Positions 611-51,922 of a stretch of DNA of 64,000 nt are shown here, piece by piece; within the stretch, counting starts at the first letter, position 1, and each line of letters begins with the position of its first letter. The stretch is from Rhodopseudomonas palustris. Lineage in GTDB: Bacteria > Pseudomonadota > Alphaproteobacteria > Rhizobiales > Xanthobacteraceae. The notes beneath the pieces were generated by a model that was given only the letters and a program-made list of their open reading frames with translations, had not been told where the DNA came from and searched no databases. A program made the position numbers and the translations under genes. Location of the stretch: NCBI GenBank assembly GCA_016215605.1, contig JACRJB010000006.1, positions 3,842 to 67,841 of the forward strand, given 5' to 3'.

Positions 611-753
611 CGTCACACGCGGGCATGACCCGCGTGTCCATCTTCTTCGAAGAGGATGGATTGCCGGGACAAGCCCGGCAATGACGTGGGTTGTTGTGCA
701 TAGGCAGCGAGTAACAACCGCCGTCATGGCCGGGCTTGTCCCGGCCATCCACG
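611..753. repeat. CGTC-type REP family A: inverted doublet (611-642, 655-686) plus single copy (722-753)
   Basis: cgtc-acacgcggg-catga-cccgcgtgt-ccatc; gatgg-attgccggg-acaag-cccggcaat-gacg; cgtc-atggccggg-cttgt-cccggccat-ccacg. Confidence 0.9.
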
Positions 754-7390: not shown

Positions 7391-8743
7391 ATGCCTGCTC
7401 CAAGATTCGCACAGCCATCCGAGGCGCCAGGATTAACCGCGCGCCGGATCGCCGCCGACATCCTGGACGGCGTTTTGCAAAAGCGCCGGACGCTCGACGA
7501 ACAGCTCGAAGGCCCGGCCGCACATCCCGGCCTGAAAACGCTGCCGGATCGCGACCGCGCGCTGATGCGCCGGCTGGTCGCGACCATCCTGCGCCGGCTC
7601 GGCACGCTCGAACATCTGCTGGCGCGGATGCTCGATCGCGGCGTGCCGACCGACGCGCCGCGCGCCAAGAGCGCGCTGCTGATCGGCGCCGCGCAGATTC
7701 TCTGGATGGACGTGCCCGATCACGCCGCCGTCGACCTGTCGGTGCGGCTGGTGCAATCAGACCGTCGCGCCACCAAATATGCCGGCCTCGTCAACGCGGT
7801 GCTGCGGCGCTGCGCGCGCGAGGGCCAGCCGCTGGTGGATGAAGTTGCCGGCCAGGCGCTGGATGTACCGCAATGGCTGATGACACGCTGGCGTGCGCAT
7901 TACGGCGACGACGCCGCGCAGGCGATCGCGGTTGCGATCAGCCACGAACCTTCGCTCGACATTACGGTGAAGTCGGAGCCGGACCATTGGGCCGGGCGGT
8001 TGTACGGCGAGATGCTGCCGACCGGCACGGTGCGGACGCTGCTGCAGGGCTCGGTGAAGATGCTGCCGGGTTTCGAAGACGGCCAGTGGTGGGTGCAGGA
8101 CGCCGCCGCGGCATTGCCGGCGCGGCTGTTCGGCGATCTCGCCGGCAAGTCGGTCGCCGATCTGTGCGCGGCGCCGGGCGGCAAGACCGCGCAACTGGCG
8201 CAAGCGGGCGCGCGCGTCAGCGCGATCGACCGCTCTCCGGCGCGCGTCGCGCGGCTGCGCGAAAATCTGGCGCGGTTGTCGCTCGAAGCGGAGACCGCGG
8301 TCGCCGACGCCACCGAATGGCGCAGCGATGCGCCGGGCAGTTTCGACGGCGTTCTGGTCGATGCGCCCTGCGCCTCGACCGGCACCATCCGCCGCCATCC
8401 CGACGTCGCTTGGCTGAAGCAGGAGAGCGATATCGGCGCGTTGTCGGCGGTGCAGAGCCGGCTGCTGCAGAAGGCGGTGGCGCTGCTACGGCCCGGCGGC
8501 ACGCTGGTGTATTGCACCTGTTCGCTGGAGCCGGAGGAAGGCGAGCAGGCGATCGCCGCGCTGCTCGACGCCGAGCCAGGGATGCGACGCGTCCCGGTCG
8601 AGCCGGCCGAAGTCGCCGGCCTCGCCGAGATCGTGACCCCGGCAGGCGACCTGCGGACGCTGCCGTCGCATCTGCCCCACGCCGATCCACGGCTCGCGGG
8701 GTTCGACGGCTTCTATGCCGCACGATTGACCAAGCCCCTGTAA
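7391..8743 (+). CDS. rsmB: RsmB/Sun RNA m5C methyltransferase with NusB-like N-terminal domain
   Basis: VQDAAA, DLCAAPGGKT, VLVDAPCASTG, LVYCTCS, DGFYAARL. Confidence 0.9.
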   Translation: MPAPRFAQPSEAPGLTARRIAADILDGVLQKRRTLDEQLEGPAAHPGLKTLPDRDRALMRRLVATILRRLGTLEHLLARMLDRGVPTDAPRAKSALLIGAAQILWMDVPDHAAVDLSVRLVQSDRRATKYAGLVNAVLRRCAREGQPLVDEVAGQALDVPQWLMTRWRAHYGDDAAQAIAVAISHEPSLDITVKSEPDHWAGRLYGEMLPTGTVRTLLQGSVKMLPGFEDGQWWVQDAAAALPARLFGDLAGKSVADLCAAPGGKTAQLAQAGARVSAIDRSPARVARLRENLARLSLEAETAVADATEWRSDAPGSFDGVLVDAPCASTGTIRRHPDVAWLKQESDIGALSAVQSRLLQKAVALLRPGGTLVYCTCSLEPEEGEQAIAALLDAEPGMRRVPVEPAEVAGLAEIVTPAGDLRTLPSHLPHADPRLAGFDGFYAARLTKPL

Positions 8744-32384: not shown

Positions 32385-32416
32385 ACGGCCGGCGCTGCGT
32401 CTTCCGCCGATAAAAG

Positions 32417-32534
32417 CCATGGCCGGGACGAGCCCGGCCATCACGGAGGTCAGCGCTCTCCAACAAAGCTCAGCATCTTCTGGCCATGACGGGAGCCTCC
32501 CCCGTCATGGCCGGGCTCGTCCCGGCCATCCACG
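32417..32534. repeat. Family A REP cluster
   Basis: Reverse copy 32417-32445, truncated reverse arm 32482-32491, forward copy 32503-32534. Confidence 0.85.
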
Positions 32535-38485: not shown

Positions 38486-41011
<2,526 letters not shown>

Positions 41012-41154: not shown

Positions 41155-42294
41155 TCAGCTCCGCGGCGAACTCCGGCCGGAATCGACGGTGAAAATCTCG
41201 GCGCCGGCGCCGATCTCGGCGAAGGCTGCAGGGTCGGCGCCCGTCATCCAGACCTGGGCGCCGAGCTTCGCCAGTTCGTCGAACAGCGCCGCGCGCCGCG
41301 ACGGGTCGAGATGCGCCACGACTTCGTCGAGCAGCAGCAGCGGCGTGATGCCGGTCATCTCCGAGACCAGCTGCGCATGCGCCAGCACCAGGCCGATCAG
41401 CAGCGCCTTCTGCTCGCCGGTGGAGGCGTCGCGCGCCGGCATCGCCTTCGGCGCGTAGATCACCTCGAGATCGGTCAGATGCGGGCCGTCGAGGGTGCGG
41501 CCGGCGGCGGCGTCGCGCGGCCGGCCCTCGCGCAGGATGGTGCGATAGCGATCCTCGACCGCGGTGGCCGGCTCGGTCAGCAGCGCGCTTTCCATCCAGC
41601 CGTCGAGCATGATCTTGGCCGACGGAAACGCCGAGGCGGCGCCGCGGGCGTCGAGCATCGCGGCCAGCCGCATCGCGGTCTGGCCGCGCATCGCCGCCAC
41701 GGCGACCGCGAGTTCGGCGGTCTCGCGTTCGACCGCATCGAGCCAGTGCGAGTCGGCGTTGCGATAATCCTCGAGCAGGCGGTTGCGTGATCTGAGACTA
41801 CGGTCGAGCGCCGAGACCCGGCCGGAATGCTGGCTGTCGATCGCCAGCACCAGCCGGTCGAAGAACCGCCGCCGTTCCGATGCCGCGCCCATGAACAGCC
41901 CGTCCATCGCCGGCGTCAGCCAAACCATGCGCAGATGATCGCCGAACGCGGTGGCCGAGCCGACCGGCTCGCGGTCGATCCGGCAGCGCCGCGTCGTCGC
42001 GGTCTCGGCGCGCGTCGGATCGATCCCGGTGCCGAGCGTCGCCAGCCCGAGCGCGCCCTCGACCTCGGCCGCCACCGCCCAGGAGCCGTCGCCCTGATTG
42101 TCGGCGACATCGTCGAGCGTGGCGCGCCGCAGCCCGCGCCCCGGCGACAGAAACGAGATCGCCTCCAGGCAATTGGTCTTGCCCGCCCCGTTCGCCCCGA
42201 CCAGCACCACCCGCTCCCCACGCGTCGTCAGCCCCGCCACCCGATAATTGCGGAAATGCGTCAGCGTCAGGCGTGTGATGCGGGAGGCGGTCAT
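41155..42294 (-). CDS. recF: DNA replication/repair protein RecF
   Basis: GANGAGKTN, RRRFFDR, STGEQK, LLLDEV. Confidence 0.95.
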   Translation of the reverse strand: MTASRITRLTLTHFRNYRVAGLTTRGERVVLVGANGAGKTNCLEAISFLSPGRGLRRATLDDVADNQGDGSWAVAAEVEGALGLATLGTGIDPTRAETATTRRCRIDREPVGSATAFGDHLRMVWLTPAMDGLFMGAASERRRFFDRLVLAIDSQHSGRVSALDRSLRSRNRLLEDYRNADSHWLDAVERETAELAVAVAAMRGQTAMRLAAMLDARGAASAFPSAKIMLDGWMESALLTEPATAVEDRYRTILREGRPRDAAAGRTLDGPHLTDLEVIYAPKAMPARDASTGEQKALLIGLVLAHAQLVSEMTGITPLLLLDEVVAHLDPSRRAALFDELAKLGAQVWMTGADPAAFAEIGAGAEIFTVDSGRSSPRS

Positions 42295-42321
42295 GGGGCA
42301 GGAACGTTCGTGTTCTGAAGC

Positions 42322-42688
42322 TGTCATTGCCGGGCTTGACCCGGCAATCCATCGTCCGCGTCAGCGGACAATTTCATCATAGATATCGCGCCATTCCGGA
42401 TTGCCGGCGACGATCAGGTCGACCTTCCACTCGCGAGACCAGTGCTTGATGTTCTTCTCGCGCTGGAGCGCCGCAGTAATCGTGTCGTGGGCTTCGAAGT
42501 AGACCAGAATTTTGATGTGATAGCGCTTGGTGAAGCTTTCCGCGAGCCCTTCGCGGTGCTCGTACACCCGCCGCACGAGGTCATTCGTCACGCCGACATA
42601 TAGCGTGCCACCAGGGGCGCTGGCGAGGATGTAAACCCAATAGGTCATCCGAAGAGGATGGATTGCCGGGTCAAGCCCGGCAATGACG
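42322..42688. mobile_element. Putative REP-flanked GIY-YIG nuclease cassette
   Basis: Perfect 31-bp inverted repeats (42323-42353, 42657-42687) enclosing a single gene, inside dnaN-recF; mobility is inferred. Confidence 0.6.
42361..42648 (-). CDS. GIY-YIG nuclease family protein (95 aa)
   Basis: YWVYIL...LYVGVTNDLVRRVYEH...EKNIKHWSREWK..LI..NPEW; catalytic Tyr/Arg/Glu pattern present. Confidence 0.9.
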   Translation of the reverse strand: MTYWVYILASAPGGTLYVGVTNDLVRRVYEHREGLAESFTKRYHIKILVYFEAHDTITAALQREKNIKHWSREWKVDLIVAGNPEWRDIYDEIVR

Positions 42689-42739
42689 AACTGTGCTCAC
42701 TCGTCGAGGTCCGGTGCGGGAAGATATCCCCGGTATGCC

Positions 42740-43858
42740 TTACACCCGCATCGGCATCAGCACGTACAGGGCGTTCTTCTTGTCGCGGTCCTGGATCAGG
42801 GTCGGCGAGCCGGGGTCGGCGAGTTTCAGCACCGCGACTTCGCCTTCGATCTGGGCGGCGATGTCGAGCAGATAGCGCGAGTTGAAGCCGATATCGAGCG
42901 GGTCGGAGGCGTATTCGACTTCGAGCTCTTCGGTGGCGCTGCCGGAATCCGGATTGGTCACCGACAGCACCAGCTTGCCGGCGCTGAGCGCCAGCTTGAC
43001 GGCGCGGCCGCGCTCGCTGGAGATCGTCGAGACGCGATCGACCGCGGCTTCGAAATCCTTCTTGTCGACCACCAGTTCCTTGTCGTTGTTCTGCGGAATC
43101 ACGCGGCCGTAGTCCGGGAAGGTGCCGTCGATCAGCTTCGAGGTCAGCACCACATTGCCGATGGTGAAGCGGATCTTGCCGGCGGAGAGTTCGAGGCCGA
43201 TCTCGGCGTCGTTGTCCTCGATCAGCCGCTGCACTTCGCCGACGGTCTTGCGCGGCACGATCACGCCCGGCATGCCGGCGGCGCCGGCGGGCTGCGCCAG
43301 ATCGACCTGCGCCAGGCGATGGCCGTCGGTCGCGACCACGCGCAGCTTGCCGTCCTTGGCCGAGCCGGCGGTGTGCAGATAGATGCCGTTGAGATAGTAG
43401 CGGGTCTCTTCGGTCGAGATCGCGAACTGGGTGCGGTCGATCAGCCGCTTCACGTCGGAGGCGGTGAGGCTGAACGAATGTGACATCTCGCCGGCGGCGA
43501 GATCCGGGAAGTCGCTCTCCGGCAGCGTCTGCAGCGTGAAGCGCGAGCGGCCGGCGCGGATCGCCAGCACCGAGCGGTCGCCGTCGCTTTCCAGCACGAT
43601 CTGCGAGCCGTCCGGCAGCTTGCGGACGATGTCGTAGAACATGTGCGCCGGCACCGTGGTCGAGCCCGCGGTCGCGGTCTCGGCCGGCAGCGTCTCGGTG
43701 ACTTCGAGGTCGAGGTCGGTCGCCTTCAGCGACAGCTGGGCGTTTTCGGCGCGCACCAGCACGTTGCCGAGGATCGGGATGGTGTTGCGGCGCTCGACCA
43801 CGCGGTGGACGTGGCCCAGCGACTTCAGAAGTTGCGCGCGTTCGACCGTGACCTTCAT
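42740..43858 (-). CDS. dnaN: DNA polymerase III beta clamp
   Basis: RRNTIPIL, ATDLD, STEETRYYLNG, ATDGHRL, GTFPDY, LMPMRV. Confidence 0.97.
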   Translation of the reverse strand: MKVTVERAQLLKSLGHVHRVVERRNTIPILGNVLVRAENAQLSLKATDLDLEVTETLPAETATAGSTTVPAHMFYDIVRKLPDGSQIVLESDGDRSVLAIRAGRSRFTLQTLPESDFPDLAAGEMSHSFSLTASDVKRLIDRTQFAISTEETRYYLNGIYLHTAGSAKDGKLRVVATDGHRLAQVDLAQPAGAAGMPGVIVPRKTVGEVQRLIEDNDAEIGLELSAGKIRFTIGNVVLTSKLIDGTFPDYGRVIPQNNDKELVVDKKDFEAAVDRVSTISSERGRAVKLALSAGKLVLSVTNPDSGSATEELEVEYASDPLDIGFNSRYLLDIAAQIEGEVAVLKLADPGSPTLIQDRDKKNALYVLMPMRV

Positions 43859-44099: not shown

Positions 44100-45518
44100 C
44101 TATTCCTGCAGCAGGCGCTTGAGCGACTCGACCTCGTCGCTCAGCGTGTTGTCCTTGGACACCAGACCTTCGATCTTGCGCACGGCGTGCAGCACCGTGG
44201 TGTGGTCGCGCCCGCCGAAGCGGCGGCCGATTTCCGGCAGCGAGCGCAGCGTCAGCGTCTTGGCCAGATACATCGCCACCTGGCGCGGCCGCACCACATT
44301 GGCGGTGCGGCGCGACGACAGCAGGTCGGAGCGGCTGACGTTGTATTGCCGCGCGACGACGCGCTGGATGTCCTCGATCTTGATCCGCTTCGGCTCCTGC
44401 GGCCGGATCAGGTCGCGCACCTCGTGCTCGGCCATTTCCAGCGTCACCGGCTGGGCGTTGAGCTTGGAGTGCGCCAGCAGGCGGTTGATCGCGCCCTCGA
44501 GGTCGCGGCCGTTATGCGTGATGGCACGCGCCAGATATTCCAGAACCGGCTGCGGCACGTCGAAGCTCGCATGATGCGCGCGCGCCGCGACCACGCGCGA
44601 CTTCAGGATGCCGAGCCGCAGGTCTTCGCCGAGCGGCGCCATTTCGACCACCAGACCGCCGGCGAGCCGCGAGCGCACCCGCTCGTCGAGGCTTTCGAGA
44701 TCGGCCGGCGGACGATCGGCCGCGACCACCACCTGGCGGCCGGCGTCGATCAGCGCGTTCAGCGTGTGGCAGAACTCGGCCTGGGTGGTCTTGCCCTGCA
44801 GGAACTGCAGATCGTCGATCACCAGCACGTCGATGCCGCGCAGCGCTTCCTTGAAGGCGAGCGAGGTCTGCGTCTTCAGCGCGGCGACGAAGCCGTACAT
44901 GAACTTCTCGGCGGTGAGATACAGCACCTTGCGCTCGGTGCCGGAATTGCCGGCCCAGGTCACCGCCTGCAGCAGATGCGTCTTGCCGAGGCCGACGCCG
45001 GAATGGATGTACAGCGGGTTGAACATCACCGGATCGCCGCGGCGGCCTTCGGCCACCTGCTTGGCGGCGGCATGCGCCAGCGTGTTGGAACGGCCGACCA
45101 CGAAGCTCGCGAACGTCAGGCGCGGATCGAGCGGCGAGCCGCCGAGCGCGTCGTGGCTGGTCGAGGCCGGCGCGGTGGCGTAGTTGCGCGTGTCGGTCGC
45201 CGGACGATGTTCGTCGCGGCGCTGCTCGGCCGGCGCCGGCGCTTCCTTGGTGGTGGCGGCGCGCATCGGCGATCGCACGGTGAGATCGATGCGGCAGACT
45301 TCCGGCATTTCCGCCTGCCAGCAGGTCAGCACCTTGTCGGAGTAGTGGGTCTGGATCCAGCTCTTCAGAAACCGGGTCGGCACCGACAGATGCACGCTCT
45401 CCTGCTGAACGGCTTCGAGATCCATGCGCGCGAACCAACTCGAATAGACGTCCTCGCCGACGCTCGAGCGCAACCGGCCTTTGACGCGAGACCAGCGATC
45501 ATGTTCCATATTCGACAT
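44100..45518 (-). CDS. dnaA: Chromosomal replication initiator DnaA
   Basis: [46 protein letters not shown]. Confidence 0.98.
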
Positions 45519-51833: not shown

Positions 51834-51922
51834 CGTCATGGCCGGGCTTGTCCCGGCCATCCAGGTTTGCGATCCGGCGCGATTTTCAAGACGTGGATGC
51901 CGGCTATCGGCGAGGCATGGCG
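51834..51922. repeat. Family A REP plus degenerate inverted partner
   Basis: cgtcatggccgggcttgtcccggccatcca, then gtggatgccggc...gcatggcg. Confidence 0.75.

Follow-up and report, generated by a model that had tools for sequence, protein, structure and literature searches.

What a small nuclease gene and the two hairpin repeats that bracket it have to do with one another is the question raised by one locus in a 64,000-nucleotide stretch of Rhodopseudomonas palustris DNA (GenBank assembly GCA_016215605.1, contig JACRJB010000006.1, positions 3,842 to 67,841), the whole of which is referred to below as the window. The gene lies between dnaN and recF and encodes a 95-residue GIY-YIG protein, and the repeats at its two ends resemble the CGTC-tagged kind of repetitive extragenic palindrome (REP). 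An earlier reading of the letters alone (the sequence-only reading) had taken the arrangement for a cassette similar to those of the RAYT transposases, in which the nuclease nicks or spreads its own REPs, and had held that no dedicated enzyme was established for CGTC REPs. The latter view is outdated, as proteins of the SsnA family bind a CGTC-tagged single-stranded DNA (ssDNA) hairpin and cleave immediately 5′ of it (Chenal et al., 2025, Nat Commun 16:2388; PMC11893778). We consider it probable, at roughly four chances in five and judging from sequence, that the locus is a Bradyrhizobium-type member of this Ssn family together with two cognate hairpin repeats. The pairing of nuclease and repeat is real but already published, the same study having described the Ssn family as GIY-YIG proteins of about 94 residues, most of them flanked by repeats.

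The nuclease gene occupies positions 42361..42648 of the minus strand, begins with ATG and was recognized as an open reading frame (ORF) whose product matches Pfam PF01541 (GIY-YIG) over residues 3–75 (E=4.1e-15), in agreement with the sequence-only reading on the nature and position of the gene. GIY-YIG is the sole Pfam match in the protein and no second DNA-binding domain was found, while searches of NCBIfam and PADLOC gave no match above cut-off. By tblastn the protein is 52.2% identical over residues 5–94 (E=1e-25) to the chromosomal homolog of N. gonorrhoeae, the locus used for this comparison, a value that lies below the E < 1e-10 required by Chenal et al. (2025). The N. meningitidis protein SsnA (NMV_0044) is a single-domain GIY-YIG protein of 94 residues that falls in CDD cd10448 (GIY-YIG_unchar_3), and the substitutions Y6A, Y17A, and E64A each abolish its cleavage activity; biochemistry has been published for four members of the family (Chenal et al., 2025). 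With its single domain and 95 residues the window protein falls within the range of about 94–100 residues typical of Ssn proteins, and it has all three catalytic residues at the same numbering, in addition to R26 and E52. Among 66 homologs, Y6 and Y17 (of the GIY and YVG motifs), R26 and E64 are kept in at least about 90%, and E52 in at least 98%. The gene is under purifying selection, with a median dN/dS of 0.067 at a dS of about 1.3. The nearest solved structures by sequence are BH0048 (1ZG2, E=1.4e-5) and EF2693 (1YWL, E=3.6e-3); top PDB matches to WD40 proteins were dismissed as noise driven by repeats, and a weak GIY-like tblastn match at 7742–8002 was judged spurious, as it lies inside a 450-residue ORF (7391–8743, plus strand).

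The two flanks of the gene form an inverted repeat with 34-nt arms (42323–42356 and 42654–42687) that are 97% complementary, within which 31 nt (42323–42353 and 42657–42687) are perfect and are separated by 7 nt from the stop and by 8 nt from the start of the gene. The sequence-only reading had described such a perfect 31-bp repeat 7–8 bp from the two codons; the repeat and the distances stand, and its coordinates were one base off at each end. Read on the gene strand, the 5′ hairpin repeat (42657..42688, minus strand) is CGTC-ATTGCCGGG-CTTGA-CCCGGCAAT-CCATC, and the 3′ hairpin repeat (42322..42353, tagged strand plus), which ends 28 nt before the recF ATG, is TGTC-ATTGCCGGG-CTTGA-CCCGGCAAT-CCATC. 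Each arm folds by itself into a hairpin with a 9-bp stem and a 5-nt loop at a DNA free energy of −10.9 kcal/mol (z = −3.9 and −4.9; 0 of 200 shuffles folded as well), and the unpaired tags, TGTC on the left arm and CGTC on the right, point outward, away from the nuclease gene, just as the sequence-only reading had it. The arms also create spurious ORFs that start MDCRVKPGND (42658–42885, plus strand, and 41798–42352, minus strand), and repeat-derived peptides of this type are likely to appear as "hypothetical proteins" in annotations.

The window hairpins have the features that define the CGTC-3 class of REPs: their tag is (C/T)GTC, their 9-bp stem begins with AT, the loop is of 5 nt, and the tail reads CCA. 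REPs of this class have been reported in Bradyrhizobium and R. palustris, often as inverted dimers, by Di Nocera, De Gregorio and Rocco (2013; PMC3733652), according to whom no transposase of their own seems to go with CGTC REPs. The associated gene, both here and in Chenal et al. (2025), encodes a GIY-YIG nuclease and would be invisible to a survey of transposase genes. Because the window hairpins are of the CGTC-3 class, the repeats of the Ssn family and the "orphan" REPs of class CGTC-3 are objects of one kind. SsnA binds the NTS repeat (CGTCATTCCCGCGMAVGCGGGAATCYRG), which is the oriented form of dRS3, as ssDNA only, does not bind RNA and cuts a few nucleotides upstream (5′) of the repeat; the three bases before the palindrome control cleavage, and the C after it controls binding (Chenal et al., 2025). 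The window hairpin shares with NTS the CGTC tag, a stem starting AT and the C just after the palindrome, but its stem is of 9 bp, against 8 bp in NTS, and its 5-nt loop is CTTGA. A logo of 58 flanking repeats, taken from independent contexts, shows conservation of at least 80–90% at the GTC tag, at the first A, in the CGGG-CTTG(A/T)-CCCG core, at the last T and in the CCA tail, with the inner stem positions varying in paired fashion. The conserved positions mirror those of the published mutagenesis (GTC tag, first A, GC-rich core, and the C that follows the palindrome). As in the Ssn family, oriented hairpins stand on both sides of the window gene and are also dispersed in the genome.

Several points weigh against the assignment. 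The homolog used for comparison was the gonococcal locus, not NMV_0044, and the gonococcal copy has no in-frame ATG. The published SRM pattern, HGTCWYN(0-2)YYVSBRHN(0-5)WNVSBRGN(0-2)RNCYNB, matches neither arm and has 0 matches in the window, and recognition rules derived from the 8-bp-stem NTS may not be exactly transferable to the window hairpins. Five of 25 syntenic copies of the gene look broken, which indicates that it is dispensable in some lineages. Natural transformation is not known in Bradyrhizobium, where the part in transformation demonstrated for Neisseria need therefore not hold, and cleavage of ssDNA by the window protein is something we infer by homology. The gonococcal homolog itself (L089; NZ_CP119142.1, 1881719–1881988) is surrounded by NTS/dRS3 repeats (CGTCATTCCCGC..GCGGGAATCC); it has a nearby ATG in another frame and may be frameshifted, and NZ_CP119142.1, though classed as a plasmid, is a chromosome of 2.17 Mb. 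As for the SRM pattern, it was built by hand from 29 genomes (Chenal et al., 2025) and is a search tool and no definition: it matches the Azospirillum flanks described below and NTS, and misses the window hairpins, their sister subtype and the Novosphingobium type, with the result that Bradyrhizobium-type members would be scored as unflanked. Because 9-bp-stem hairpins escape it, the reported rates of association, 71% of Ssn homologs with at least one nearby repeat and 42% with repeats on both sides (PMC11893778), are probably underestimates.

The pairing of nuclease and hairpin is not chance. With each species represented by one genome, a scan gave 80 loci encoding relatives 58–87% identical to the window protein, and 65 of them had an upstream hairpin in the same orientation that ended at most 80 nt before the start codon, 66 had an inverted downstream hairpin at most 130 nt past the stop codon, and 59 had both. 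Across the remainder of the same loci the background is 0.108 hairpins per kb, and the flanks are enriched more than 100-fold. Grouped by neighboring genes, the loci fall into about 38 distinct contexts, of which 30 have the upstream hairpin, 29 the downstream and 26 both, and the distance from hairpin to ATG takes three classes (12–13, 17–18, and 22–23 nt). More distant relatives (43–55% identity) on replicons of a plasmid collection have the same flanked pattern: on pNL2 of Novosphingobium aromaticivorans a perfect inverted pair, CGTCGCCCCGTG-CTTGA-CACGGGGC, brackets the gene, and in Azospirillum lipoferum 4B (AZO_p3 255506–255799; L091/L094) the gene is located within the suf operon, has sufB and sufC as its neighbors and is flanked at either end by a hairpin doublet. 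In the 50 kb around both genes the flanking copies are the sole copies of that hairpin. Just two dimers are listed for the whole 648-kb Azospirillum replicon in the table of Di Nocera et al. (PMC3733652), and the two doublets at the homolog appear to be these. BIME-like arrays in which stem types ATTGCC and ACCACC alternate were seen near the nuclease gene at two loci (L042, 3286–3524; L047, 1497–3485).

Hairpin and protein also vary together. Over 30 independent contexts protein distance and upstream-hairpin distance are correlated (Mantel Spearman r = 0.48, p ≤ 2e-4), a correlation to which host relatedness may contribute, and in the protein tree, a neighbor-joining tree without support values, every clade is marked by a stem-sequence pair and a loop (CTTGA or CTTGT) of its own. 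A second Ssn paralog (65–67% identity) with CTTGT-loop flanks occurs elsewhere in the genome in several Bradyrhizobium spp. (L056, L057, and L073) and in Rhodoplanes, where the two paralogs of one genome (L054 and L075) carry different loop types. The organism of the window probably carries a CTTGT-type paralog outside these 64 kb, because CTTGT is a subtype found among the gene-less repeats of the window. Both the enrichment of homolog flanks and the agreement of repeat type with nuclease clade had been proposed by the sequence-only reading as checks on its own idea, and both were borne out.

Within the dnaN-recF junction the hairpins are conserved better than the gene. Among 22 intact orthologs the 5′ hairpin is at the same place, with a mean pairwise identity of 0.961, and the corresponding value for the 3′ hairpin is 0.994; set beside these arms (0.96 and 0.99), codon positions 1 and 2 have 0.92, codon position 3 has 0.57 and the spacer just outside the arms 0.32–0.47. 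All changes in the stem are compensatory (ATTGCC/GGCAAT, ATGGCC/GGCCAT, GTTGCC/GGCAAC, and ATCGCC/GGCGAT). Because the arms are far more conserved than codon position 3 or the spacer, and the stem changes are compensatory, the hairpins are maintained by selection or by homogenization with the repeat pool.

All 25 Bradyrhizobium-type loci sampled, the one in the window and 24 that the genome scan supplied, have the cassette at the dnaN-recF junction; the sample was selected via the nuclease itself and is biased toward occupied sites. The cassette is also present in the photosynthetic strain Bradyrhizobium sp. BTAi1, at CP000494.1 3484–3771. The dnaN-recF nucleases form a monophyletic clade in the protein tree, and identical proteins are always found in the same context. 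Of the five broken copies, L003 and L010 have stop codons, L012 has lost its start, L024 is truncated at the 5′ end and L063 has a deletion of 18 codons; the arms are essentially intact in all five, with a few substitutions in both arms of L063 and one, in the upstream loop, in L024. Some of the broken copies may be errors of metagenome-assembled genomes; L024 and L063 come from isolates, in which faulty binning or assembly is a less likely cause than in the copies from metagenome-assembled genomes.

The sequence-only reading had also asked whether relatives with an empty junction exist, and one such lineage was found. Metagenome contigs in which a dnaN stop is followed by a recF start within 31 nt numbered five, and in four of these (L095, L097, L098, and L099) DnaN was 89–95% and RecF 81–85% identical to the window proteins, which is the range of species with an occupied junction. 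Their shared spacer of 30–31 nt holds no gene and no hairpin. In neighbor-joining trees without support values the four contigs group with L014, a genome whose junction is occupied and which nests among the empty ones, and they fall within the occupied lineages. In L014 the two stretches outside the cassette add up to 30 nt, so that they are as long together as the empty spacer. As the empty junctions hold neither gene nor hairpin, the whole unit, hairpins included, has on at least one occasion been lost or acquired in one piece. Contigs joining recF directly to dnaN occur in three sequencing runs, and run X17 has both an occupied and an apparently empty junction at similar depth. The findings that the sequence-only reading had named as fatal to it, homologs that are single-copy, syntenic and not REP-flanked, with a gene fixed between dnaN and recF, are thus only half present: the gene is syntenic and vertically inherited in Bradyrhizobium, yet it is repeat-flanked everywhere and one lineage is empty.

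By homology to SsnA of N. meningitidis, we propose that when the locus is single-stranded the strand that reads (C/T)GTC-hairpin-CCA would fold, that the 95-residue protein would bind the folded hairpin by way of its stem sequence and of the C immediately following the palindrome, and that the cut would fall a few nucleotides 5′ of the GTC tag, with double-stranded DNA, RNA, and the complementary strand spared. Because the arms are inverted and the tags face outward, each strand of the cassette would have a single site that can be cut, located at the 5′ boundary of that strand. The hairpin-gene-hairpin unit is old and has the behavior of a domesticated resident, being inherited vertically in Bradyrhizobium and maintained under purifying selection, and the dispersed gene-less hairpins, the CGTC-3 REPs, are its presumed genomic substrates. 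Candidate roles are the restriction of incoming ssDNA, the processing of hairpins in ssDNA gaps, and the turnover of repeats.

The gene-less hairpins bear on what else the nuclease might do. The 23-nt core, with at most 3 mismatches, occurs 5 times in the window (0.00 expected) and GCCGGG-N5-CCCGGC 8 times (0.04 expected). The sequence-only reading had stated that the REP family of the flanks recurs in the window without the gene; related hairpins are indeed present, but they are sister subtypes with loops CTTGT, CTCGT, or CATGA, and the CTTGA loop is confined to the flanks of the nuclease gene. A gene-less doublet with tags outward, the topology of the cassette, lies at 612..685 and consists of hairpins at 612–642 (plus strand; stem ACACGCGGG, loop CATGA) and 655–685 (minus strand; stem ATTGCCGGG, loop CTTGT). 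Its tails pair across the 22-nt stretch that separates the two stems, and as ssDNA the whole adopts a three-way fold (−30.4 kcal/mol, z = −7.6). The doublet resembles the cassette minus its gene. A further hairpin at 723..753 (plus strand, GTCATGGCCGGGCTTGTCCCGGCCATCCACG) is of the subtype that flanks the second Ssn paralog in other Bradyrhizobium genomes, so that 612–753 holds three hairpins in a row with orientations plus, minus, and plus. A doublet with tags inward (32414..32534) has a decayed left copy (32419–32441; tag GTG, no CCA tail) and an intact right copy (32504–32534, plus strand, loop CTCGT), and a single hairpin, GTCATGGCCGGGCTTGTCCCGGCCATCCAGG, lies at 51835..51865 (plus strand). 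Bins containing the repeats were 20–200 times deeper than their flanks in four sequencing runs.

Doublets with tags outward would be in keeping with the nuclease being a RAYT-like mobilizer that spreads its own repeats, the cassette being the autonomous master of non-autonomous doublets, and this idea, although we think it doubtful, survives best among the alternatives. In such a scheme cuts in opposite strands at the two boundaries would leave full-length complementary 5′ overhangs, which fill-in synthesis would duplicate. The same hypothesis was raised by Chenal et al. (PMC11893778), who liken NTS-ssnA-NTS to an insertion sequence, and to the IS200/IS605 transposases and REPs. It would account for the repeat-gene-repeat architecture at many unrelated sites, for gene-less, tags-outward doublets of the same subtype pairs, for the doublet on each side of the Azospirillum gene (like RAYTs between REPINs), for the way hairpin type follows nuclease clade, and for a unit that is present or absent at dnaN-recF as one block. 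It fits poorly with the lack of any recent copying in our data, in which identical proteins share their context and the dnaN-recF clade is monophyletic, and with the difference in subtype between the gene-less repeats of the window and those at the gene. The chemistry also speaks against it: GIY-YIG enzymes hydrolyze DNA, and no strand-transfer (strand-joining) chemistry is known among them. In Neisseria, moreover, the very population of Ssn repeats has been tied in its size and its decay to an HUH RAYT, the repeats decaying where that RAYT is frameshifted (10.1101/2021.07.10.451892). Of the RAYT-like cassette envisaged by the sequence-only reading there remains, then, the functional gene-hairpin pair, upheld by the 26 of 38 contexts flanked on both sides and by the co-variation; the mobilizing activity is unsupported, given that no copying was observed, the hydrolase chemistry, and the Neisseria RAYT.

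Many stand-alone GIY-YIG proteins are homing endonucleases, and a selfish, homing-like gene that moves by itself and lands between pre-existing repeat pairs, with the hairpins as remains of the target site, would be in keeping with the roughly 38 insertion contexts, several of them inside operons (dnaN-recF; sufB-sufC in Azospirillum), and with the tags-outward, short-spacer doublets, which could be empty targets. We regard it as quite improbable. The empty dnaN-recF junctions are without any hairpin, so that the hairpins came or went with the gene; hairpin-to-ATG distance and subtype are specific to the clade and not to the genome; the Rhodoplanes paralogs keep different loop types within one genome; and the protein is without the extra DNA-binding domain of GIY-YIG homing enzymes.

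As the sequence-only reading had observed, there is no evident ribosome-binding site before the nuclease gene: the 8–13 nt that precede the ATG are ccatcctcttcgg, A/C-rich as in the orthologs, with no Shine-Dalgarno sequence behind the 5′ hairpin. That the hairpins are merely expression elements (stabilizers of mRNA, terminators, or dampers of translation) whose association reflects the general abundance of intergenic REPs is very hard to credit, for although REPs of E. coli are known for their effects on the 3′ ends of mRNAs (review: PMC5082802), the hairpins stand just past the dnaN stop and just past the nuclease stop, and the Shine-Dalgarno sequence is missing, the idea is at odds with an enrichment of more than 100-fold over local background, with flanking copies that are the sole ones in 50 kb in two other genera, with the fixed orientation and the co-variation of hairpin sequence with protein clade, and with homologs that bind and cleave the hairpins directly, SsnA having no RNA binding (PMC11893778).

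The surroundings of the gene are those of the replication and gap-repair cluster. On the minus strand of the window the order is dnaA (44100–45518), dnaN (42740–43858, its stop codon 91 nt upstream of the nuclease start), the nuclease gene, recF (41155–42294), and gyrB (38486–40927), and the BTAi1 orthologs of the cluster genes carry matching Pfam domains (e.g., DNA_pol3_beta on the dnaN ortholog). The longest recF ORF begins at 42327, within the hairpin; orthologs favor the ATG at 42294, which is 28 nt past the end of the repeat and, like that of the nuclease gene, has no obvious Shine-Dalgarno sequence. In BTAi1-type genomes (L083 and L085) a DDE transposase gene and a 713-residue gene occupy the recF-gyrB interval; in the window recF and gyrB are adjacent. 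The window sequence at 41800–43200 occurs mainly in groundwater metagenomes (runs X1, X2, X8, and X17), and no RNA run was found to contain it.

What these observations add to the field is modest and leaves the kind of system unchanged. For annotation, the many small genes labeled "GIY-YIG nuclease family protein" in Bradyrhizobium and related genera could be named Ssn-like ssDNA endonucleases, and the repeats responsible for spurious ORFs (MDCRVKPGNDE, for example) could be named their cognate hairpins. The position in a replication and gap-repair cluster, the conserved arms and a lineage with an empty junction, which lost the cassette or never had it, together offer a natural comparison for the role of Ssn outside Neisseria, in that they let one ask what Ssn does in a host not known to be competent and whether repeats decay without it.

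Set against known systems, the locus stands closest to SsnA and its NTS repeats, with the difference that the Bradyrhizobium-type genes sampled here sit in the dnaA-dnaN-recF-gyrB cluster. The UPF0213 proteins BH0048 and EF2693 are likewise small stand-alone GIY-YIG proteins; their similarity is weak and they have no assigned function. From the GIY-YIG homing endonucleases of the I-TevI type the window protein is set apart by having no separate DNA-binding domain and by an intergenic chromosomal context in place of an intron, intein, or phage. The Br-REP1 and Br-REP2 elements of B. japonicum USDA110 (PMC5082802) are different elements from the window hairpins. With RAYTs and REPINs (Nunvar, 2010; Bertels and Rainey, 2011; Ton-Hoang, 2012) the locus has in common a vertically inherited gene with its own flanking hairpins or doublets, one gene per repeat type, and a repeat type that co-varies with the clade of the enzyme; the RAYT enzyme, too, acts on ssDNA hairpins and recognizes an unpaired tag at their foot. 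The likeness, which extends to vertical inheritance of the window gene, is one of behavior only: GIY-YIG hydrolases are unrelated in fold and chemistry to HUH enzymes with their covalent tyrosine intermediate, the sole Pfam domain of the window protein is GIY-YIG and not the HUH Y1 domain (IS200/IS605-like), and the tag is (C/T)GTC, not GTAG. It is a tentative and, on balance, unlikely extension of this likeness that Ssn nucleases are the missing engine of the whole alphaproteobacterial CGTC REP superfamily, the cassette being mobile as a unit, cuts and fill-in duplicating the doublets, and the paralogs (with CTTGA and CTTGT loops) each maintaining their own repeats; if it were true, it would constitute a GIY-YIG counterpart of the RAYT/REPIN symbiosis.

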